64,000 nucleotides of DNA from an uncultured Clostridium sp. Lineage in GTDB: Bacteria; Bacillota; Clostridia; TANB77; CAG-508. The notes beneath the pieces are model-generated. The model worked only from the letters and a program-made list of their open reading frames with translations, was not told where the DNA came from and did not search any database. Positions 9,923-60,766 of this stretch are shown here, one piece after another. A program made the translations under genes and the position numbers. The stretch is from positions 52,948 through 116,947 of the forward strand of contig USFR01000006.1 of NCBI GenBank assembly GCA_900553945.1, in the 5' to 3' direction. Each line of letters begins with the position of its first letter. Position 1 is the first letter of the stretch.

Positions 9923-11200
9923 CTAATAAGCAATTTCATATTTAATAATATCTTCAATCGTTTTAGAACTCATTAAATCGTCAAATACATTACTTACATC
10001 TTTCTTGTTTTCATCAGTACTTGTTATATAAAAGTTTTCAGTAGTTTCTATATATTTGTGTCCCAAAATATCAGCAACATCTCTTATTTCTATACCATTT
10101 CTTAAATTAATTGTTGCATAACTTCCTCTTAAATCATAAAATCTACAATTTTTAATACCAAGTTCTTTATGAATTATCTTAAATGGATAATTTAAAATAT
10201 TTCTGCCAACATATTTACCATTAGGTCTTGTAAATACCATATCTGCTTTGTTTATTTGAAGGATATTACTTTCATTCTGCACAATTCGTTGTTCTACTAC
10301 TTTTCCATATTTATTGAGTACATCTTCAAAATGATAAGTGCAATATTCTTTACCATATAACTTTTTCATATACTGTTGTTTCTTTTTATAATTCGTTAGA
10401 GCATTATATACAGTTTCACACATATTAATTTGTCTTGTGCCTTGTTTAGTTTTAGTAGTGCCAATATACCATCTTCCTTTATCATCTTTTGGCTTATCAT
10501 ATACTGTATGCCTAACTTTTATAACTCTATTTTCGAAATCTATATCGTCCCAAGTTAAGCTACAAACCTCTCCTGTTCTCATTCCAGTAAAACAACTTGT
10601 AATAAATGCACAAGTAAAAGTATCATCATCTTTAAATCTATCTAAAATTAAATCAATTTCATTTTTATTATATAAATGTTTCTTAAAAGCCTTTTCATCT
10701 TCTATTTTTGGTAGTTTTAAAGTCAATGTTGGATTATATCTTATAAATCCATATACATCTGTTGCTATTCTAAAACAGTTTTTCAAAACTTTTAATATAT
10801 TTTTATAATATGATTTTTTATAGTTATATTTGTTGCATAAATCAACGATATATGAATTTAGCTTTACACTTGTTAATGAACTTAATCTATACTTGCCTAG
10901 TTCTGGTTTTAAATATTTATCCATTATTGTTTTATAAGTTCTTCTTGTATTATATTTCAAGTTTATTTCACAATAATTTTCATACCAGTAATCTAAATAA
11001 TCACTAAATGAAATTGCTTTTTCTTTAAAACTCAAACCAGTGTTTAAATATTCTGTATAAGCAATATTTCCTGCTTTAATTGCTTCATCTTTTGTTTCAA
11101 ACCCAGATTTATTTATAAATTTTCTTTTGCCATCTACTTTAGCTACTTCAAATTTATATTGATAATATTTGCCTCTTTTCTGAATTGTAACATTACCCAT
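9923..11200 (-). CDS. Tyrosine-type site-specific recombinase/integrase (int1)
   Basis: 425 aa. N-terminal SAM-like region. C-terminal catalytic region with R...HxxR...Y context (DLRGSYATINLRNG ... HKYIETTENFY). Paralog of the 12941-14212 integrase. Confidence 0.85.
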   Translation of the reverse strand: MGNVTIQKRGKYYQYKFEVAKVDGKRKFINKSGFETKDEAIKAGNIAYTEYLNTGLSFKEKAISFSDYLDYWYENYCEINLKYNTRRTYKTIMDKYLKPELGKYRLSSLTSVKLNSYIVDLCNKYNYKKSYYKNILKVLKNCFRIATDVYGFIRYNPTLTLKLPKIEDEKAFKKHLYNKNEIDLILDRFKDDDTFTCAFITSCFTGMRTGEVCSLTWDDIDFENRVIKVRHTVYDKPKDDKGRWYIGTTKTKQGTRQINMCETVYNALTNYKKKQQYMKKLYGKEYCTYHFEDVLNKYGKVVEQRIVQNESNILQINKADMVFTRPNGKYVGRNILNYPFKIIHKELGIKNCRFYDLRGSYATINLRNGIEIRDVADILGHKYIETTENFYITSTDENKKDVSNVFDDLMSSKTIEDIIKYEIAY

Positions 11201-32108: not shown

Positions 32109-33134
32109 ATGAAAATGTCAAATACTTTAAAAGATGTCATCCATCAAAAGTACGTTAGTGCAGCACAGGCAGCAAGCATTAACCCAGTAGAGGTTGAAGA
32201 AAATCTTCGCAAAGAGCTCGAAAACATTGATTTTTCTGGAAATGATGCTATAATTATGGATTATTTTCTGGACAAACTTGACAAAAGCATTCTTGCTCGG
32301 AAACAAACCCACCAAATGACAAACGTCAGCAGTGATGTATTGCACACAGCAATGTATATTATCAAATGGTTGAATCACGAATTTGATTACAATATTGATA
32401 CAAACATTGTTGCAAGACGTAAAGGTCTTGATTCAGAATTAGCTAAAATGCTTAGCCTCGCAGATGAACAGGATCCAACTCAGATTATGGATCGATTTGG
32501 TATAAGATTTGTTCTCGAAAACAACATCTCAACCGTATGCAAGTTCATGGTAAAATTCGTTAACATCATTTGCCACTTGAATCGTCAAGATTTAAGAAAC
32601 TTTATGAGTTTCGTGGAAACATCAGAATATGTTGATGATGTAGATGCCTACAGAATCAAAAACTTATTAAGAATTCCGTTTTCACTGAAACCACTTAGCA
32701 GAAAAAGTGATGGCAAACAGTTTGACCACGAGAAATATCCTGATATCGAGCTCCCGACACAAGCCGATATTGAAATTGTTAAACATCTTCTTGGAAACAT
32801 GAAATTCTATTTCATTCCGAAATCAAATGGATATCAGTCCATTCATGTTTTGATTGAAATTGAATCTTCATCTCCAAAGTTGCCAGGTTTCCAGATTGAA
32901 GTACAATTCCGTACTCACAAAATGGATGACTTTGCAGAAAATAACATCAACGCATCTCATATTCTTCATAAGGGTAAATTTAAGGAATACCTTAATGTAT
33001 TTACCCTTACAGATGAGGAATTGAAAGGAACTAACATTAGATTCTTCCGTTCATATAAGAGCGAGCAGGATGACCAAGACGGCATTCACTTTGGGAAGAA
33101 ATTCTACAACCGTCGTATCAACACAATTTCATAA
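32109..33134 (+). CDS. RelA/SpoT-domain protein: small-alarmone-synthetase-like nucleotide pyrophosphokinase (possible toxSAS) in a GC-elevated insert
   Basis: Synthetase-fold motifs: basic helix VARRKGLDSELAK, DRFGIRFVLE (G-loop Asp), NGYQSIHVLIEI, EVQFRTHKMDDFAE...HILHKGK (ExQxRT..M..WA..H..YK pattern). GC about 37%. Confidence 0.65.
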   Translation: MKMSNTLKDVIHQKYVSAAQAASINPVEVEENLRKELENIDFSGNDAIIMDYFLDKLDKSILARKQTHQMTNVSSDVLHTAMYIIKWLNHEFDYNIDTNIVARRKGLDSELAKMLSLADEQDPTQIMDRFGIRFVLENNISTVCKFMVKFVNIICHLNRQDLRNFMSFVETSEYVDDVDAYRIKNLLRIPFSLKPLSRKSDGKQFDHEKYPDIELPTQADIEIVKHLLGNMKFYFIPKSNGYQSIHVLIEIESSSPKLPGFQIEVQFRTHKMDDFAENNINASHILHKGKFKEYLNVFTLTDEELKGTNIRFFRSYKSEQDDQDGIHFGKKFYNRRINTIS

Positions 33135-33343
33135 CAAAAAAAAAATTGTCTCACATCAATATACCACCGTTCCGAATTGGAACGCAAAACAAAAAAACGA
33201 CCATGCAGGCCGTTTTTTTGTTTTATTTAATTTTAATGATACCCCTCAACTATGCTAGGGGATAATTGTAACTTTAATAATCTACTCAACTATATTGAGA
33301 AATAATTATAACTTTAATATTTCTCTGTTATACACAAAAATAA

Positions 33344-35113
33344 TTATTTTTCCTCAGGTAAAAGGTTCAACAATTTTAGTATCGCAACACCAATCTTTTC
33401 ACCTTTTCCCTCATAAGGCCATTCGTTAATTGAATAGCCAGGATTATCATTAATCTCAATAATTGAATAATTCTCCTCATCCAAATCTTCAATAATTATA
33501 TCAACACCGCAAATTTTTGCATCAAATGCACGAGACGCTTTCTCAGCAACCTTTTTAAAATATGTTGGCATAATCTCAGTCATATCAACGCTCTCACCAC
33601 CAGTAGAACAATTTGAATTTGTTCTCAAGAAAACTCTCTTTCCAGCAGGTAAAACCGTTTCATAATCATAGCCTTGAACCCTCAAATACTCAACAACCGG
33701 TTCATCCATCTTAACAGGAGTTCCAGTCAAGAAATGCCAAGGCTCTTTATTTTTCGCATCAATCAATTCCTTAATTGTACTCTTTCCATTTCCAACAACA
33801 CTAGCAGCCCTCCTATGAGCGACACTCAAGCATTTACCATTAACAACTAAGAAACGATACTCCATACCCTTTACATACTGCTCAATTAAAACATTTTCAT
33901 CAAACTTAAACGCATAATCAACAGCATTCATAATCTGAGCTTTAGAAGCACTTTTAGCAAATACAGTAATACCTGTACCATAGTTCGTATTTCTAGGCTT
34001 TACAACCAAAGAGCGATTATAAAATTCCTTCAATAACTCTTCTCTATCCTGAGCATTCATATTTCTATTTAGCAAAATAGCATTTGGAACATTCAGACCA
34101 TGCTCTTTCATTATCTGCTTTGAAGTAAACTTATCATCAGTAATAATTGGGAAAATATATGTATCTTTATCAGTCTTATTTCCCTCAATTACAAACTCCT
34201 CTCTGTCCTTATAATAGAATTGAACAATACTCTTTAACTCATTCAAAACTTCATAATCAACACCATTAGCAATAGCATCTTTAATTAAAACTACAGATTC
34301 ACTAACTAGCTTCTTATAATTTTGAAGACAATATCTAGCATTGTGGCCTTCATTAGTATACAAACTCAAAAATTCTTCAACTTTTTCATCTGTTAAAGAA
34401 TCCTCATCAAATCTACACAATCCAGCTTTAACCTCAGCTTCAATAGATTCAAGACCTGATTTAGTCTTCAAATTATACTTTTTCTCTACCTTATATAAAT
34501 ACTTAATCTCCTCTTTTAAACTCTTTGATTCATCATTTCCTAAGCAACCAAAAATAAATGTTAATAAAAACATTGCATCAGCCTCTGACAAACCACACTT
34601 TGAACGATAATTAATACCTATTGATGAAATCCTCAACTTATTCTTTCCAGCAATAATCTTACACTTACCAAACAACGGCTGAATAAGTTCTAACTTACGC
34701 TCAAACTCCTTCTTAATCTTCTCATTAGCCTCTTCAATATCATCTGGTAAAAAATCCTTTTCTCTAATTTCATCATAAAACTCTTCATCCAATATAATTC
34801 CCATTTGAGCCTTTAAGTTTATCTTTTCATCCTTCTTCTTAAAAGTTCCAAACGTCCATATATATTGATTAATCTTATATAACTCTTCAATAACAACATT
34901 TGTTATTTCATTAAATTTATCATACGCATCAAATAAATTTTCTTCCATTGGCGTTTTAATTTTAAAAACAACATCATCGTCATCAGCCGTAATTAACGGA
35001 TTTTTTTCCTTACAGCCAAATGCCTTAGGAAAACTTGTTTCAACCAACTTATTTTTTGAATTAATTCTTACAAACTCTCTTTCGAGACTAATATTATATT
35101 TTTCTATTTTCAT
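33344..35113 (-). CDS. ATP-grasp ligase (D-Ala-D-Ala ligase/glutathione synthetase-like C-terminal domain) with an uncharacterised ~300-aa N-terminal domain
   Basis: C-terminal half has ATP-grasp signatures: VVKPRNTNYGTGITVF, EQYVKGMEYRFLVVNG, IIEINDNPGYS. The N-terminal half matches nothing recognisable by eye. Confidence 0.65.
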   Translation of the reverse strand: MKIEKYNISLEREFVRINSKNKLVETSFPKAFGCKEKNPLITADDDDVVFKIKTPMEENLFDAYDKFNEITNVVIEELYKINQYIWTFGTFKKKDEKINLKAQMGIILDEEFYDEIREKDFLPDDIEEANEKIKKEFERKLELIQPLFGKCKIIAGKNKLRISSIGINYRSKCGLSEADAMFLLTFIFGCLGNDESKSLKEEIKYLYKVEKKYNLKTKSGLESIEAEVKAGLCRFDEDSLTDEKVEEFLSLYTNEGHNARYCLQNYKKLVSESVVLIKDAIANGVDYEVLNELKSIVQFYYKDREEFVIEGNKTDKDTYIFPIITDDKFTSKQIMKEHGLNVPNAILLNRNMNAQDREELLKEFYNRSLVVKPRNTNYGTGITVFAKSASKAQIMNAVDYAFKFDENVLIEQYVKGMEYRFLVVNGKCLSVAHRRAASVVGNGKSTIKELIDAKNKEPWHFLTGTPVKMDEPVVEYLRVQGYDYETVLPAGKRVFLRTNSNCSTGGESVDMTEIMPTYFKKVAEKASRAFDAKICGVDIIIEDLDEENYSIIEINDNPGYSINEWPYEGKGEKIGVAILKLLNLLPEEK

Positions 35114-35133
35114 AATAACTCACTTTCTTACAA

Positions 35134-36105
35134 CTACAATATATTCATAGATTCTACCTGAACTTTTCCAAACCTTGGTGTTCTTTCATTACCAACTGCC
35201 GTACTTCCAGGCTCTATGCTCATATTAAGTGCATTTACTGGTTTAATTTCATGGTATACAACAAAATCATGTTCATACATATTCAAATAACTGCGTTTTT
35301 CATATGTATTTCTTTTTATAATATGAGACAATTTTTTAAACAAATTATCCGTATCCAAATCAACATAAGAAAAAACTTTTTCAGAACTCTCATCACCTTT
35401 ATTTTGAAAATCAATTTCAAATAAAAAAGTTGGAGCCTCTTTTAATTCTATGTTTTTATTCATAATTTCATAATAACCTACCAGCTTTAATCCTACATTT
35501 AATTCATCCTCCTGCAACGATTTAACCGTTTTGCACAAAGCATCAAAACTATTTTTATTTCTACAATCAATCTCACACGCTAATCGTATTTTATTCTCCT
35601 TATTTAACTCATAAGCGCCTTTAATTGCAGACCTATATAGTTGCTTACCAATTCCTTTTACTTTATTTCCATACACGTCAAAAATATTCTGCTTTGCAAG
35701 AACCCCTGTTATAAACATCACATTTTCATTTGAAGTTGGGAAAAACGGATTATTAGACTTTTTTAAATTATTTTCAATTTTAACTGTTGTTGCTCCAATA
35801 ATATCATTTTCACCAAACTCATTTCTCTGCGTTGCAAGTATAACAGGATACTTAGTCACATTTTGATAAACCTGTGAAACATCCGGCACATGCATAAAAT
35901 CTTTGTTACCAATAAAATTCTGGTCATAAAAATAAGTTAATTTCAAAATGCCATTTAAAAAATCTTTTTCTGGCAAAGATTGAAACAAATTAAATTTAAT
36001 ATTTGATTTCTCTTTCAGTTCCTCCATTTCTTTAAAATATTTTTTGAATACAGTCTCTTCAAGAGACATCTGTATTCGCGGTTTTGCTTTTTTCTTTTTC
36101 TTCAT
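35134..36105 (-). CDS. GNAT-family N-acetyltransferase domain protein
   Basis: Motif A-like NKVKGIGKQLYRSAIKGA after beta-strand FITGVLAKQ. Lysine-rich N-terminus; the true start is probably at MSLEETVF. Confidence 0.55.
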   Translation of the reverse strand: MKKKKKAKPRIQMSLEETVFKKYFKEMEELKEKSNIKFNLFQSLPEKDFLNGILKLTYFYDQNFIGNKDFMHVPDVSQVYQNVTKYPVILATQRNEFGENDIIGATTVKIENNLKKSNNPFFPTSNENVMFITGVLAKQNIFDVYGNKVKGIGKQLYRSAIKGAYELNKENKIRLACEIDCRNKNSFDALCKTVKSLQEDELNVGLKLVGYYEIMNKNIELKEAPTFLFEIDFQNKGDESSEKVFSYVDLDTDNLFKKLSHIIKRNTYEKRSYLNMYEHDFVVYHEIKPVNALNMSIEPGSTAVGNERTPRFGKVQVESMNIL

Positions 36106-36393
36106 ATGATTCTCCTATAACAAGCAATCCGAGCTAGTTACAACCGATTTGCTTGCTCATAAAAAATAGTGCTAACCACTTTTAAGGCTAACACAGTAAT
36201 AATACGATTTTTCAAATTAAAAAGCAATTTGATAAACGAGTTAATTTTAACCAATTTCAGTCAAATTTAACCATTTTAGCTCAAATTTCATTTCCAATAT
36301 ATGTTTATCTTTTTAAATATTGTTCTTAATCATTTTATTGCATTTTCTCAATAAAAGTCCCAGTAACTCAACACTTTGCAGAATTTTGTAGTT

Positions 36394-37191
36394 CTAAACT
36401 CCCATTATGTTATAACCATTATCAGCATAAAGTACATGTCCCGTAACACAACTTGACATGCCAGATAATAAAAACGTTGCAACATCACCAACTTGACTAG
36501 TAGTAACATTTTTATGTAATGGTGCCTTTTCCTCAACAATACTTAAAATACTTTCAAAATCTTTTATTCCCTTAGCAGATAAAGTTTTAATAGGTCCAGC
36601 AGAAACAGCATTCACACGAACACCTTCCTTACCAAGATTTTCAGCTAAATATCTAACACTCGTCTCTAACGCAGCTTTAGCAACACCCATAACATTATAC
36701 CCTTCTAAAACTTTAGTAGAACCGTGATAAGTTAAAGTAACTAAACTAGCATTTTCATTTAACAAATCCATTTGTTTAGCCATTCTAGCTACTAGCACAA
36801 ATGAATAACTACTTACATCACAAGCATGTGCAAATCCCTCTTTACTTGTATAAATAAAATCATTGTGTAAATCTTCTGTATTTGCATGCGCAATCGCATG
36901 AACAATTCCATCAACCTTGCCATTTTCCTCTTTAATTTTTTTGAAACATTCTTCAACTAATTCATCTTCTGAAGCACCATTCAAGCAATAGCACTTACTT
37001 CCAGCAAAATCAGAAACCAATTCTTCAATTTTCTTTCTATTATCCTCACCCATAAAAGTAAAAATCAATTTTGCCCCATTTTCATAAGCAGACTTTGCAA
37101 TTCCATACGCAATGCTCCACTTATTCCTAATTCCCATTATTAATATTTTTTTATTTTCTAATAACATATCAAAATCCAACCTTTCAATCAT
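36394..37191 (-). CDS. fabI: Enoyl-[acyl-carrier-protein] reductase (NADH), FabI
   Basis: SDR fold with the FabI-type N-terminus LIMGIRNKWSIAYGIAK and the active-site Y-x6-K region. Confidence 0.85.
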   Translation of the reverse strand: MIERLDFDMLLENKKILIMGIRNKWSIAYGIAKSAYENGAKLIFTFMGEDNRKKIEELVSDFAGSKCYCLNGASEDELVEECFKKIKEENGKVDGIVHAIAHANTEDLHNDFIYTSKEGFAHACDVSSYSFVLVARMAKQMDLLNENASLVTLTYHGSTKVLEGYNVMGVAKAALETSVRYLAENLGKEGVRVNAVSAGPIKTLSAKGIKDFESILSIVEEKAPLHKNVTTSQVGDVATFLLSGMSSCVTGHVLYADNGYNIMGV

Positions 37192-51129: not shown

Positions 51130-53721
51130 CTATATATTATCCTTCCTTATTGTTTCAATAATATTTTGCTTATTAATTTTCTTCAAAGAAAATCTCATAA
51201 TAACCCAAATTAAAATTGCAACAACAACAATTGAAATACCAATCGCCTTAAATGGTAGTTCGTATGTCATCTCATAGCTAATGCCAAAAGCCTTAAACAA
51301 TAAATATGACAAACCAACTCCAATTGGAATACCAATAACTAAAGCCTTACTACCATATAAAACACTTTCCAATCTAATCATCCTGTTAAACTCTTTTTTC
51401 GTCATACCAATTGATTTCAAATTAGCAAATTCCTTTTGACGTAACTCCATATTAGTTGTAATAGTATTAAATATATTCGTAACACCAATCAAAGAAATAA
51501 CAGCAATAAATCCATACAAGAATATAGAAATAGCTAGCATCATAGCGTTTTGCTCCTTAGCAATAGTCTCAATATTCTCAACATAACTACCTATATTTGA
51601 TTTTCTAACAATTTCTTCTAACTCGTTTGGATTACTAGAATCCATATACAAACTAACACTCATATCTTCCTTGCTTTTGTATTTATCAAAAAACTCATCA
51701 CTAACTATAAACATTCCATTTGAATAGTAAGGTCCCATTGGAACCGAATCAACAATCGCAGCGATTTCTAAATCAGTGCTCTTACCATCTATACTAGCAC
51801 TAATATGATCACCTTTTTTGTAATCATAAATTCTATACATTGAATATGCTTTCTTACTATCTATATACGTTTTAGCAGAATCATTTAAAATAACTTTATC
51901 TTTCACATCATCATATTTCAAACCGTTCTTACTTAAAAATCTCATATATTCATCTTTCCCAACTGCCACTAAATTTGCATAATCCTTTTCATCATTAGAA
52001 TTTATCATACCAAGACTTTCATCAGCATTCTTCTTCTCACTTGTATAATGATTTCTTAATTCTCTTCCAGCAACCTCAGCAACTAAATCCCTATTAATAG
52101 AATACTTTTTAACAGTATCATTTTTCGCAATCTCAAGCAATTGATTAATCTCACTCGTTCTTCCATTTACAATAAGATTATAATCATAATCCTTATAATA
52201 TACAGACGTTGTACCAAATGCATATTCTATAAACGCACTCATTGCAATAAAAATTGACACACTAACAATAATTGAAATAACTGTTGTTCTGTACTTTTTT
52301 CTATTTCTCTTTAAATTCTTATAAGAAATATCTCCACCAACGCCAAATAAACTCTTTATAATCCTTGGCGTTCTCAATTTCTTAGCTTTAATTTTTATAT
52401 CATCAGTATTCCTAATTGCTTCAATTGGTGAAATCTTGCTTGCCTTTTTTGCAGACTTTCTAGCAGATAAATAAATAGTAATACCCGCAAGTAAAATAGA
52501 AATTGCAATTGCCGAAAGATTTGTTGTAAATATAAATTCAAAACCTAAAAAACTTTTTAAAATATGTGAAATAACTTTAAGTAAAACAAAAATTGCAATC
52601 AAGCCACTCAAAATTCCAACAGGAACTCCAATAAGTCCTAGAATTAAACCTTCATACAATACATTCTTTCTAATCTGCTTTGAAGTAGCACCAACAGAAG
52701 CAAGCATACCATACTGTCTCGTTTTTTCAGTGATAGAAATTTCGAAACTATTTCTAATACAAAAAACAGAAGTAACAATAATAATCACTATAACAATCGC
52801 ACTGACAGTATATAAAACATTTCTAGTAGCCTCTTTAAACTCTAAATTCTCCCATCTTATCAAACTATCATTTTCAGAAAATACATACTTAGCATTTCCA
52901 AAAATCTCTGTATCTGACTTACTAATCATTCCATTAGACGAGTCAGAAATACGTTTCAACACTTGTTCATCAATTCCAATAATTTGAGCAGTTGTAGCAA
53001 GATGTTTTTTAACATCTTTATACCTTACATACACATTCAAACTACCCTTAATATCATTCTCATTCAATATAGTAAGAACCGTATAGCCAGGAGCTGTATA
53101 AGGTTCAATATCAAAATTTGGTCTCTCTATTATTCCAACAATCTTGTAATTCTTCTCATTTCTAAGAACAAAACTCTCACTTTTTTCTTCATCTAAAGCC
53201 ATACCTTGATCTAAACTTTCACCATCACTAATTCTTTCACCTAATTTCAAATCAAGCTCATCACCAATTTTATACTCAACACCACCATTAGATTTTATAT
53301 GAGATGAAATCACAACCTCATTATCATTCTCAGGAAGCCTACCTTCTTTTAGTTCAATCCCAAGTTTCTCAATCGAACCCTTTGAATACGCTTTAAGATA
53401 CAAATATGGTTTATCTTCGTTCTTACTACCATCCAATAAACTATAACCTAAATCTTCATTTAAATATACATCCTCAACATTTCTATTATTTTTAATATAC
53501 TTTAAATCATCAACAGGCACATTATAAAATACATAATGATAATCTCCCGAATCTTGCTTTTCATATTCAATAATCGTGCTCCTAAAACTACTAACAAGAG
53601 TTGCAACACCAGTAATTAAAGCAGTAGACAAAATAATACCAATTATAGTAACCAATGTTCTCTTTTTGTTCAACCTCAAATTCTTTAAAGTCAATCTATT
53701 CAACAAATTCATATTACTCAC
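51130..53721 (-). CDS. ABC transporter permease, FtsX-like (BceB/MacB-type, large extracellular domain)
   Basis: 863 aa with two FtsX-type 4-TM bundles separated by a large extracytoplasmic domain. Adjacent to a MacB/BceA-type ATPase. Confidence 0.8.
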   Translation of the reverse strand: MSNMNLLNRLTLKNLRLNKKRTLVTIIGIILSTALITGVATLVSSFRSTIIEYEKQDSGDYHYVFYNVPVDDLKYIKNNRNVEDVYLNEDLGYSLLDGSKNEDKPYLYLKAYSKGSIEKLGIELKEGRLPENDNEVVISSHIKSNGGVEYKIGDELDLKLGERISDGESLDQGMALDEEKSESFVLRNEKNYKIVGIIERPNFDIEPYTAPGYTVLTILNENDIKGSLNVYVRYKDVKKHLATTAQIIGIDEQVLKRISDSSNGMISKSDTEIFGNAKYVFSENDSLIRWENLEFKEATRNVLYTVSAIVIVIIIVTSVFCIRNSFEISITEKTRQYGMLASVGATSKQIRKNVLYEGLILGLIGVPVGILSGLIAIFVLLKVISHILKSFLGFEFIFTTNLSAIAISILLAGITIYLSARKSAKKASKISPIEAIRNTDDIKIKAKKLRTPRIIKSLFGVGGDISYKNLKRNRKKYRTTVISIIVSVSIFIAMSAFIEYAFGTTSVYYKDYDYNLIVNGRTSEINQLLEIAKNDTVKKYSINRDLVAEVAGRELRNHYTSEKKNADESLGMINSNDEKDYANLVAVGKDEYMRFLSKNGLKYDDVKDKVILNDSAKTYIDSKKAYSMYRIYDYKKGDHISASIDGKSTDLEIAAIVDSVPMGPYYSNGMFIVSDEFFDKYKSKEDMSVSLYMDSSNPNELEEIVRKSNIGSYVENIETIAKEQNAMMLAISIFLYGFIAVISLIGVTNIFNTITTNMELRQKEFANLKSIGMTKKEFNRMIRLESVLYGSKALVIGIPIGVGLSYLLFKAFGISYEMTYELPFKAIGISIVVVAILIWVIMRFSLKKINKQNIIETIRKDNI

Positions 53722-59750: not shown

Positions 59751-59899
59751 AACACATTTTACATAGTTTTATCAGTTTTTATAGAAGAAGTCAAATTACA
59801 CTTCTAATAATTTAAATTTTCCGCTTCGTCTAATTAATACTTTAATATCTATTCCGAATAAAATCAATTTTTTCTATAATTCGTAATAATATTATAACT

Positions 59900-60766
59900 T
59901 TAATTTCTCAAACAACTAACAATATCGGAAATTTTATCCTTAGTCTGCTTATACCCAAACTCATAAAGTTCTTCCTGTCTACCTTTAGCAAGTAATCCAA
60001 CTTTAGGCATATACAATTTTAATAAATAATCCGTGCCGTCCCATTCATAATTCGCAAGCTCTGAACACAATATTGAAAAAGACTTATCTAAAACATCATA
60101 AATATTATCACATCTTTTCTTGTCTTTATCAACAAAAACAATACTCAAAACTTTATCAGCACCAGCTTTTTTCGTTTCTCTCCACGGAAGATTTTCTGCA
60201 ATTCCTCCGTCAACTAGTAAATTATTTTCAAATCTGCAAGGTGAGAAAATGCCTGGATAACTGCAACTAGCTTGAACTGCAGTTCCTACACTAATATCAT
60301 TTATGTATTTTATATCTCTATCTCTATTTTGAATTATATTATTAGAAAATACATACAGCTTCTCTGTACACAAATTAACTGCAGGAATAACAATTGGCAT
60401 TTTAATCTGTTTAATATTGCTTATTCCTTTTTTAAAACAATATCTGTCAACAAGATTTTTTATAATTATTCCACTATTAAACCCATCAATTTTCAATCCC
60501 TTACCCGAAAAAAAATTCTTTGTAATTCTTTTAATATTTTCAAAATCAACATACCTTATTTTTCTAACATTAGCCCTAAAAATATCATGAATCTCATCTG
60601 TCGAATAGCCACAAGCATATAGCATCGCAACAATACTTCCAGAAGACGTACCAGAGATATAATCAAAATGTATTCCAGCTTCCTCTAATGCTTTAATCGC
60701 CCCAATATGAGCAAAACCTTTTATTCCGCCACCAGCTAAAGATAAACCTAATTTCATAAAAATCAC
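59900..60766 (-). CDS. Patatin-like phospholipase
   Basis: Oxyanion GGGIKG, nucleophile elbow GTSSG, catalytic DGG motif. Confidence 0.85.
   Translation of the reverse strand: MIFMKLGLSLAGGGIKGFAHIGAIKALEEAGIHFDYISGTSSGSIVAMLYACGYSTDEIHDIFRANVRKIRYVDFENIKRITKNFFSGKGLKIDGFNSGIIIKNLVDRYCFKKGISNIKQIKMPIVIPAVNLCTEKLYVFSNNIIQNRDRDIKYINDISVGTAVQASCSYPGIFSPCRFENNLLVDGGIAENLPWRETKKAGADKVLSIVFVDKDKKRCDNIYDVLDKSFSILCSELANYEWDGTDYLLKLYMPKVGLLAKGRQEELYEFGYKQTKDKISDIVSCLRN

Follow-up and report, generated by a model that had tools for sequence, protein, structure and literature searches.

What do two adjacent genes make when one encodes an ATP-grasp ligase and the other a protein that sequence searches do not place? 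The pair, called genes A and B here, lies in a stretch of 64,000 nucleotides (the window) from an uncultured Clostridium sp. (Clostridia; TANB77; CAG-508), positions 52,948 to 116,947 of contig USFR01000006.1 in GenBank assembly GCA_900553945.1. We give even chances to the reading that the two proteins form a self-contained two-enzyme module, which would work in the cytoplasm to produce a small conjugate of an N-acylated amino acid or peptide. Coordinates below are those of the window, which had been annotated in an earlier note from its letters alone. The genes and signals of the operon are as follows.

36105..35134, minus strand: gene A, open reading frame of 323 amino acids (aa), first in the operon
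35113..33344, minus strand: gene B, open reading frame of 589 aa, second in the operon
36112..36115, minus strand: Shine-Dalgarno sequence GGAG of gene A, 6 nt 5' of the ATG at 36105, read from the sequence
35119..35127, minus strand: Shine-Dalgarno-like GAAAGTGAG before the gene B ATG (35113), read from the sequence
33185..33226, both strands: bidirectional intrinsic terminator (A-run, hairpin, T-run), from a ViennaRNA fold

Linkage of genes A and B

The earlier note had described open reading frames of 589 aa (33344-35113) and 323 aa (35134-36105) and had proposed that they are co-transcribed. Both frames are present, and the signals read from the sequence support an operon, because the genes share a strand, only 20 nt separate the gene A stop from the gene B start, each gene has its own Shine-Dalgarno sequence, a terminator scan of this region of the window found no terminator-like site between them, and a strong terminator follows gene B. 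This terminator begins 118 nt past the gene B stop and folds at -21.5 kcal/mol on the minus strand, while the plus-strand fold of the same region reaches -24.3 kcal/mol; it is common to gene B and to a convergent gene for a 341-aa protein, and it marks the end of the operon. The gene order in the note needs correction: it had the GNAT-fold gene downstream of the ligase gene, but both genes are on the minus strand, so gene A, the GNAT-fold gene, is upstream and comes first. In the window AGGAGA precedes the gene A ATG, and AGGAG is kept at this place in nearly all loci.

To follow the pair in other genomes, we scanned one genome per GTDB species and obtained 34 loci, all in metagenome-assembled genomes (MAGs) of uncultured gut Clostridia from human, mouse, rabbit, chicken and ruminant hosts; some are named Candidatus Scatovivens. 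Gene B follows gene A on the same strand, 20 to 80 nt away, in 31 complete loci and in 2 more that are cut by a contig end; one locus stops before the expected gene B position. Another 20 metagenome loci have gene A followed by gene B, and the two genes are thus adjacent in some 50 genomes and metagenome contigs, without exception those of uncultured gut Clostridia. Co-occurrence elsewhere, which the earlier note had set as a check, is therefore borne out, and the adjacency is kept across proteins that are only 45% identical.

Nothing else travels with the pair. All-against-all clustering of the neighboring open reading frames found only A and B in common, the next neighbor being present in 13 of 35 loci, and it revealed no conserved third gene, glutamate-cysteine ligase (GCL) gene or AsnO-type amidotransferase beside the pair. 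A fatty-acid cluster (enoyl-ACP reductase, AccA, AccD and biotin carboxylase) precedes the pair in the window; this context is found beside the pair in only four loci. The A-B pair is a self-contained module that sits among housekeeping genes, not in islands. Gene order in the window is near-identical to that of a contig of "uncultured Clostridium sp. UMGS1994" and of a Hadza gut MAG, with most proteins 95 to 100% identical.

The ligase, its partner and the sister clade

Gene B has two parts, which we delimit as follows.

33344..34363, minus strand: gene B residues 251-589 plus the stop codon, GshF-type ATP-grasp ligase domain, from alignment to 3ln6 and NCBIfam
34364..35113, minus strand: gene B residues 1-250, reduced GCL domain (glutamine-synthetase fold), from Pfam, profile and model

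The C-terminal ATP-grasp domain claimed in the earlier note is evident, as several Pfam models score above their cut-offs: RimK (54 bits versus 21), Dala_Dala_lig_C (40.9 versus 24), ATP-grasp_6 (38.3 versus 25) and ATP-grasp_3 (32.5 versus 23.2). The ATP-grasp_6 pre-domain occupies residues 275-320 and is followed by the ATP-grasp core. Among NCBIfam models the best is that of GshF, NF002688, with 353.9 bits in two stretches, below its cut-off of 425; the second GshF model, TIGR01435, gives 213.9 bits, also in two stretches and below its cut-off of 656. Cyanophycin synthetase (TIGR02068) is matched at 204.9 bits over model positions 161-470 only (cut-off, 850), without the M domain, Ngg (TIGR03103) at 147.8 bits over its ATP-grasp part only (cut-off, 569), and the RimK family (TIGR00768) at 54.1 bits (cut-off, 143.4). 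Residues 250-580 align with residues 407-744 of Streptococcus agalactiae GshF (3ln6) at 203 bits, and the ATP-grasp half of the second solved GshF structure aligns with gene B at 188 bits. The ATP and Mg motifs are intact, with VVKPRNTNYG, EQY, NSNCSTGGES, CGVDII and IEINDNPG invariant. In the lid/substrate region, several other residues shared by the whole family are unlike those of the two solved GshFs, for example, HRR433-435 in place of LRV and PWH458-460 in place of PLR, differences that are compatible with a changed substrate. Among 36 diverse members, invariant columns make up 16% of residues 1-90, 0% of 91-250, 36% of 251-322 and 51% of 323-589. These comparisons indicate that gene B descends from GshF and that its ATP-grasp half has been kept almost unchanged.

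The N-terminal half, which the earlier note considered unrecognizable and novel, is instead a reduced GCL domain, as seen with Pfam, with profiles against GshF and GCL and with a structural model (template modeling [TM] scores of 0.72 to 0.76). Pfam Glu_cys_ligase (PF04262) matches residues 3-97 only, which cover positions 13-107 of the 372 in the profile, and the alignment with GshF 3ln6 pairs residues 7-100 with 20-114; beyond this point, about 130 residues of gene B (100-232) stand where GshF has about 280 (114-393). A profile of the first 262 residues, built from 19 members, finds GshF at an E value of 1.7e-8 as well as the stand-alone GCLs 3nzt and 1v4g, and covers 3ln6 residues 23-141 and 277-334. 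More weakly, residues 159-216 also align with the GCL strand ylEfRtfDlnPfspiGi, where the window protein reads KLRISSIGINYRSKCGL. The AlphaFold2 (AF2) model of the domain has a predicted local distance difference test (pLDDT) score of 92.3; Foldseek matches it to GshF 3ln6 and 3ln7 at an E value of 2e-9 (TM of 0.75, normalized to the query), and also to Escherichia coli GCL (TM of 0.72 to 0.75), YbdK and glutamine synthetases. The domain, of about 262 residues, is aligned to 3ln6 over about 400 columns, gaps included.

The residues that we take to be the metal ligands and catalytic residues of E. coli GCL are Glu27, Glu29, Glu67, His150, Glu328 and Arg330. In the register of the N-domain profile alignment, in which E. 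coli residue 26 corresponds to gene B residue 10, the 36 diverse members read as follows.

E. coli Glu27, gene B E11: kept in 32/36
E. coli Glu29, gene B E13: kept in 28/36
E. coli Glu67, gene B position 51: Lys in 24/36, Glu in 5/36
Glu and Arg of the GCL motif lEfR (Glu328, Arg330), gene B positions 161 and 163: variable (Q/E/K/R and others at the first, S/F/N/Y at the second)

The stretch that should hold His150 belongs to the part of GCL without a counterpart in gene B, and one more divergent member has IVRNVLR at the place of GCL ERExLR. Judged by these residues, the N-domain is very probably catalytically dead. It is not decaying: between the window and two related genomes, dN/dS is 0.036 to 0.044 for gene B residues 1-250, a sign of strong purifying selection, and 0.014 to 0.05 for the ATP-grasp half. 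Because this selection still maintains it, the N-domain probably serves in structure, or binds a substrate or a partner, and no longer acts as an enzyme. Reading frames of 570 to 595 aa are intact in more than 100 clusters, and the longest relative has 613 aa. Gene B is not an ordinary GshF, and its fold is not new. The earlier note had equated a GCL match with an ordinary GshF; the match is there, and the equation fails on the bit score (353.9 versus 425), the short N-domain and the catalytic residues that were not kept.

Public names for the two families are uninformative in the entries that we saw, one "hypothetical protein" and one JGI entry called "glutamate--cysteine ligase." The latter, P0090 (613 aa), is a member of the gene B family, and its label is probably wrong given the degenerate GCL domain.

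Gene A is harder to place. The protein has no Pfam, NCBIfam or PDB sequence match above significance, and a family profile of 40 sequences has no PDB sequence match at E values up to 10. The GNAT fold that the earlier note had assigned to it holds at the level of predicted structure only. The AF2 model (pLDDT of 86.2, pTM of 0.86) has an N-terminal helix followed by the order b1-a1-a2-b2-b3-b4-a3-b5-a4-b6-b7 (b, strand; a, helix) over residues 36-232, which is the canonical GNAT order, and an extra C-terminal beta-rich domain at residues 243-298. Foldseek matches the model to RimI (E value of 9.5e-6), Naa60, EctA, AtaT and many other GNATs with a probability of 1.0; for RimI, Naa60 and EctA, the E values range from 1e-5 to 7e-4, and for these three and AtaT, the TM scores, normalized to the target, range from 0.5 to 0.62. 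RimI-like phage and viral proteins match as well. The loop K148-V-K-G-I-G153 lies directly before helix a3 (152-170), at the place of GNAT motif A, with K as its first residue and not the Q/R of Q/R-x-x-G-x-G/A, and about 10 residues are inserted after b4. G153 is invariant across the superfamily, as are Y60, N67, H72, P74, D180, N183 and S186; G151 is nearly invariant within clade I, the clade linked to the ATP-grasp ligase, and Cys181 of the EIDCRN motif is not universal. The best-conserved stretch, FYDxNFxGNKDFMHIP (residues 58-75), maps to the a1-a2 region of the model. Because this region is the acceptor site of GNATs, the acceptor is probably similar throughout the family.

The family is rare, with 92 clusters at 50% identity in a profile search of 1.84 billion cluster representatives, and none of these 92 representatives, the longest of 451 aa, is an A-B fusion. 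Gene A evolves several times faster than gene B, and both are under purifying selection: dN/dS of gene A is 0.12 to 0.15, and between the window and locus L025 (L numbers denote our loci), where the counterpart of gene A occupies 10001-10978, gene A is 65% identical, gene B 94% and the neighboring proteins 73 to 96%; the dN/dS values of genes A and B in this comparison are 0.15 and 0.01 to 0.04, respectively. A Fem-type (tRNA-dependent, tandem-GNAT) transferase was considered for gene A and rejected, as no Fem protein is among the top 50 structure matches and the model has a single GNAT domain. A Lys-rich N terminus, MKKKKKxKPR (MKKKKKAKPR in the window, 36076-36105), is kept in the ATP-grasp-linked clade and absent from the clade described next.

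Distant relatives of gene A, examined in 9 loci and 42 metagenome loci, divide by the gene that follows them. Where the relative is at least 40% identical to gene A of the window, a B-like gene follows in 20 loci, with an N-domain 28 to 49% identical and an ATP-grasp half 61 to 79% identical to those of gene B; the exceptions are two contig ends and L082, which resembles L032. Where the relative is 27 to 36% identical, an M20 peptidase follows in 26 loci (dipeptidase-linked loci are L035-L042, L044, L046-L059, L065, L067, L068 and L085), and the exceptions are contig ends. This peptidase belongs to the PepD/aminoacyl-histidine dipeptidase subfamily, TIGR01893, with scores of 297 to 335 bits (cut-off, 344). 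Between the A-like gene and the dipeptidase gene, L035 and L036 have an unannotated open reading frame of 94 aa; in L040, a YgjV gene stands there, and a gene for a full-length Rel (HD, RelA_SpoT and TGS) overlaps the start of the A-like gene.

Elsewhere, too, an ATP-grasp ligase and an M20 dipeptidase act on one compound. Carnosine synthase ATPGD1, an ATP-grasp enzyme, and carnosinase/PepD, of the M20 type, handle the same dipeptide (PMC3407494, PMC6271292), as do the two products of the Staphylococcus aureus operon hmrA-ldmS, an M20 enzyme and an ATP-grasp L-amino-acid ligase (PMC9486568). The likeness is that a ligase or an M20 dipeptidase are alternative partners of the gene A family; the differences are that neither known case has a GNAT-fold partner and that gene B is not close to ATPGD1 or LdmS. 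Because the sister clade is paired with a PepD-type dipeptidase and ligase and M20 enzymes act on the same compounds in these systems, the analogy suggests that the gene A family works on amino acids or dipeptides, which names a class and not a compound; no specificity for histidine or beta-alanine can be inferred for the A-B pair from the comparison with ATPGD1 and carnosinase.

A candidate two-step pathway and its rivals

In the pathway that we propose, gene A, as modeled, would use acyl-CoA to acylate, probably acetylate, an amino acid or dipeptide on its amino group. The ATP-grasp half of gene B would then activate the free carboxylate of this N-blocked substrate as an acyl phosphate and add an amino acid. 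The chemistry of this second step would be that of the glutathione-synthetase half of the ancestral GshF on gamma-Glu-Cys, which is itself an N-acyl cysteine. In place of the GCL activity, the GNAT-fold protein would now supply the N-acyl substrate in trans, and the GCL remnant of gene B would have been kept as a scaffold or docking module.

Four known systems frame this proposal, of which the ATPGD1 and hmrA-ldmS type was compared above. With GshF of Streptococcus, Listeria and Pasteurella (3ln6, 3ln7; NF002688, TIGR01435), gene B shares a GCL-fold domain followed by a Ddl-like ATP-grasp domain. It differs in its length (589 aa versus about 750), in the Lys at the equivalent of Glu67, in the replacement of the lEfRtfD strand, in an incomplete GCL domain with scores below both equivalog cut-offs, and in being paired with a GNAT-fold gene. 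We know of no such pairing for GshF, and our literature search found no paper that combines GshF, ATP-grasp and GNAT. In animals, NAT8L makes N-acetylaspartate, from which the ligase RIMKLA or RIMKLB gives N-acetylaspartylglutamate. The two-step logic, an N-acetyltransferase followed by an ATP-grasp enzyme, would be the same as that proposed here; the animal ligases are of the RimK type and their genes are unlinked and eukaryotic, whereas gene B scores only 54 bits against the RimK family.

A precedent is Ngg, which N-acetylates glutamine and ligates a second glutamine to it, and whose operon also holds a peptidase (PMC8070244). Like the proposed module, the Ngg/AsnO system combines a GNAT activity with an ATP-grasp domain of the GshF/CphA clade to yield an N-acetyl dipeptide (PMC8070244), and its peptidase recalls the dipeptidase linked to the sister clade of gene A. 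The earlier note had drawn this analogy to N-acetyl-dipeptide synthesis, and it is supported. There are differences: the domains are fused in Ngg (TIGR03103, "trio_acet_GNAT") and encoded by separate genes here; there is no AsnO-type amidotransferase neighbor; gene B scores 147.8 against a cut-off of 569; gene A has no detectable similarity to Pfam GNAT families; and gene B has a GCL remnant, which Ngg lacks. In its proposed logic the pair is Ngg-like and NAT8L- plus RIMKLA/B-like, but it is a member of none of these families.

Several observations weigh against the proposal. Gene A would be a very divergent GNAT-fold enzyme, a putative acetyltransferase, and this assignment comes from the predicted fold only; an hhalign comparison of gene A with a single Pfam-positive GNAT gave an E value of 0.17, which is not significant. 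The order of the two steps follows by analogy from what the relatives GshF, CphA and Ngg prefer as substrates. These relatives all take N-substituted carboxylates: GshF uses gamma-Glu-Cys, CphA the end of its polymer and Ngg N-acetyl-Gln. In one lineage, no gene B adjoins gene A (L032, 9950-10984; L082, 1739-2776). Nor does a simple biosynthetic model account for the hydrolase partner of the sister clade. In L032 and L082, a convergent FolC-like gene comes after gene A, and a 294-aa gene, YabG-like by eye, comes before it.

A more specific version of the module has the pair making a new low-molecular-weight peptide of gut anaerobes, in which N-acylation would replace the gamma-glutamyl step, the dead GCL domain would dock the GNAT or the substrate, and the sister-clade protein with its dipeptidase would be the degradative side for that class of compound. 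N-acetyl-Cys-Gly, as one form of "minimal glutathione," would be a candidate product, and so would a carnosine-like dipeptide of the N-acyl aminoacyl-histidine type. We regard this version as improbable.

Gene B could instead still be a synthetase of glutathione or of gamma-Glu-Cys-X that performs a GshB-like second step only, with gamma-Glu-Cys coming from another enzyme or from uptake and gene A being accessory or unrelated. Its ATP-grasp half is nearest to GshF (353.9 bits versus 205 for CphA and 148 for Ngg) and aligns over its whole length with two solved GshF ATP-grasp halves (203 and 188 bits), with all catalytic motifs. This account leaves the strict A-B linkage unexplained, no GCL gene is conserved nearby, HRR433-435 and PWH458-460 differ from the solved GshFs, and the equivalog cut-offs are missed, so we consider it unlikely. 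Modification of a protein or a ribosomal component after the manner of RimI and RimK, in which A would acetylate an N terminus or a lysine and B would extend a C terminus or a side chain, has a slim chance. RimI is the top structural neighbor of gene A, RimK is the top Pfam ATP-grasp match of gene B, and the A proteins of clade I share their conserved Lys-rich N-terminal tail. Yet gene B scores 54 bits against the RimK family cut-off of 143 and 354 bits against GshF; the substrates of all its close relatives (GshF, the G domain of CphA, and Ngg) are small molecules or a non-ribosomal polymer; the pair has no linked gene for a candidate substrate; and the sister clade is paired with a dipeptidase and not with a protein modifier.

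Two further accounts fare worse. A role of the pair in conflict, as a toxin-antitoxin or phage defense system in which A would be a GNAT toxin like AtaT, TacT or KacT, is very unlikely. AtaT and KacT are among the weaker fold matches of gene A, which evolves faster than gene B and its neighbors, and a hypervariable gene with a RelA/SpoT domain adjoins the operon. On the other side, PADLOC defense models match neither gene A nor gene B, purifying selection acts on both genes, every clade member sampled has the pair, placed among housekeeping genes, and a 589-aa ATP-dependent ligase is no known type of antitoxin. Least credible of all, and nearly beyond belief, is that gene B is the product of a decaying GshF pseudogene that lies beside gene A by chance. 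The truncated GCL half and its lost catalytic residues would fit such decay; selection and synteny contradict it, with intact frames of 570 to 595 aa in more than 100 clusters, an N-domain with a dN/dS of 0.04 and a pLDDT of 92, and adjacency kept at only 45% protein identity. We therefore retain the two-enzyme N-acylation module as our working proposal, at the even chances given above.

Signals around the operon and wider meaning

The window is AT-rich, with a G+C content of 24 to 34%, and three features lie upstream of gene A.

36239-36258 and 36259-36278: tandem direct repeat found in the earlier note, 2 x 20 nt, 16/20 identical, from the sequence
36199..36229, minus strand: promoter-like block AATTGCTTTTTAATTTGAAAAATCGTATTAT, conserved upstream of gene A
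36111..36198, minus strand: 5' leader with hairpin 1 (36194..36169), U-run (36168..36159) and hairpin 2 (36166..36111), from a fold

The block contains a -35 box TTGCTT (36227..36222) and a -10 box TATTAT (36204..36199), separated by a spacer of 17 nt that consists of a T-run and then an A-run. Its pattern is AATTGCTTTTT-(T/A-rich)-AAAATCG(G)AGTATNAT, or AATTGCTTTTT...AAAATCGGAGTATNAT, with a T-run/A-run dyad in the spacer. It recurs before gene A in 22 other loci, where the encoded A proteins are only 45 to 50% identical; the position of the block and hairpin is matched in L004, L007-L011, L013, L017-L021, L024, L025, L027, L028, L031, L033 and L034. A regular expression for the block gives 36 matches in 1.38 Mb of related DNA, 23 of which are gene A upstream sites, and one match in the 64-kb window. 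The block is a putative promoter. A sigma-70 scan missed it, and promoter-like sites in the region were not above those in shuffles. A CodY box (AATTTTCWGAAAATT) in the promoter spacer was considered and rejected, as its 4 to 7 mismatches equal background.

The repeat, which carries GGTTAAA(A)T on the coding strand and lies just upstream of the -35 box, spans 36247-36286 in the register of the earlier note. The note was right that a tandem repeat exists, at 16/20 identity, and wrong on its period, which is 20 nt and not 21 bp. Such a repeat arises in 12 of 2,000 dinucleotide shuffles of the intergenic region (P of about 0.006) and in 3 of 222 equal-sized window blocks. It is identical in the conspecific loci L001 and L002, L025 retains GGTTAAA(A)T, spaced at 20 and 10 nt, and the more distant loci lack the motif upstream of gene A. 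The repeat is thus lineage specific (L001, L002 and partly L025), and its proposed role as the operator of the operon is not supported; what is conserved instead is the promoter block and a leader hairpin. By its position the repeat could be an activator site or an UP-like element.

In the window, hairpin 1 with the U-run looks terminator-like, and hairpin 2 pairs the U-run with the Shine-Dalgarno region; the leader folds at -32.4 kcal/mol (z score of -5.2). In most loci a single long hairpin comes immediately after the -10 box; its sequence differs between clades, and its z scores are -1.3 to -5.1. RNAalifold on 13 leaders found no consensus structure, the hairpins differing in length and sequence, and an Rfam search of 33000-36500 at E values up to 1 gave no match in the leader and only subthreshold chance matches at the terminator. 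Because single-sequence z scores support a fold and RNAalifold does not return a consensus, we claim only a positional 5' hairpin, an attenuator or stabilizer and not a riboswitch.

At the other end of the operon, two tandem elements of about 40 nt lie between the gene B stop and the terminator (33239-33318, minus strand). Each starts with ATTAAAGTTA(T/C)AATTAT and continues with a small hairpin, and a third, weaker copy of the 17-mer is found at 59888-59904. Pfam places a RelA/SpoT nucleotidyltransferase domain at residues 234-283 of the convergent neighbor (32109-33134, plus strand; 341 aa), which also gives a weak PADLOC match to PDC-S33. Its protein is 48% identical between the window and L001, where almost all other proteins are 92 to 100% identical, and 44% identical to its counterpart in L025. 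This hypervariable gene possibly encodes a toxic small alarmone synthetase or a defense protein. GC skew is negative in all 2-kb bins of the window except the first, and the cumulative skew falls almost monotonically. From 29 to 40 kb, the minus strand carries every long annotated open reading frame except one. The window seems to belong to a single replichore in which genes are co-oriented.

For annotation, these findings mean that gene B proteins should not be named GshF or "glutamate--cysteine ligase." They also define a rare, unannotated GNAT-fold family, for which there is no Pfam or NCBIfam model and whose two clades are tied to peptide-bond enzymes of opposite direction. We have not found a description of the fate that GshF seems to have met here, with the ligase half kept, the GCL half noncatalytic but still selected, and the first step apparently given to an unrelated GNAT-fold enzyme in trans. 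If its product were identified, the pair would add a new small peptide metabolite, possibly an osmolyte, a thiol or a signal, to the biology of uncultured gut Clostridia.

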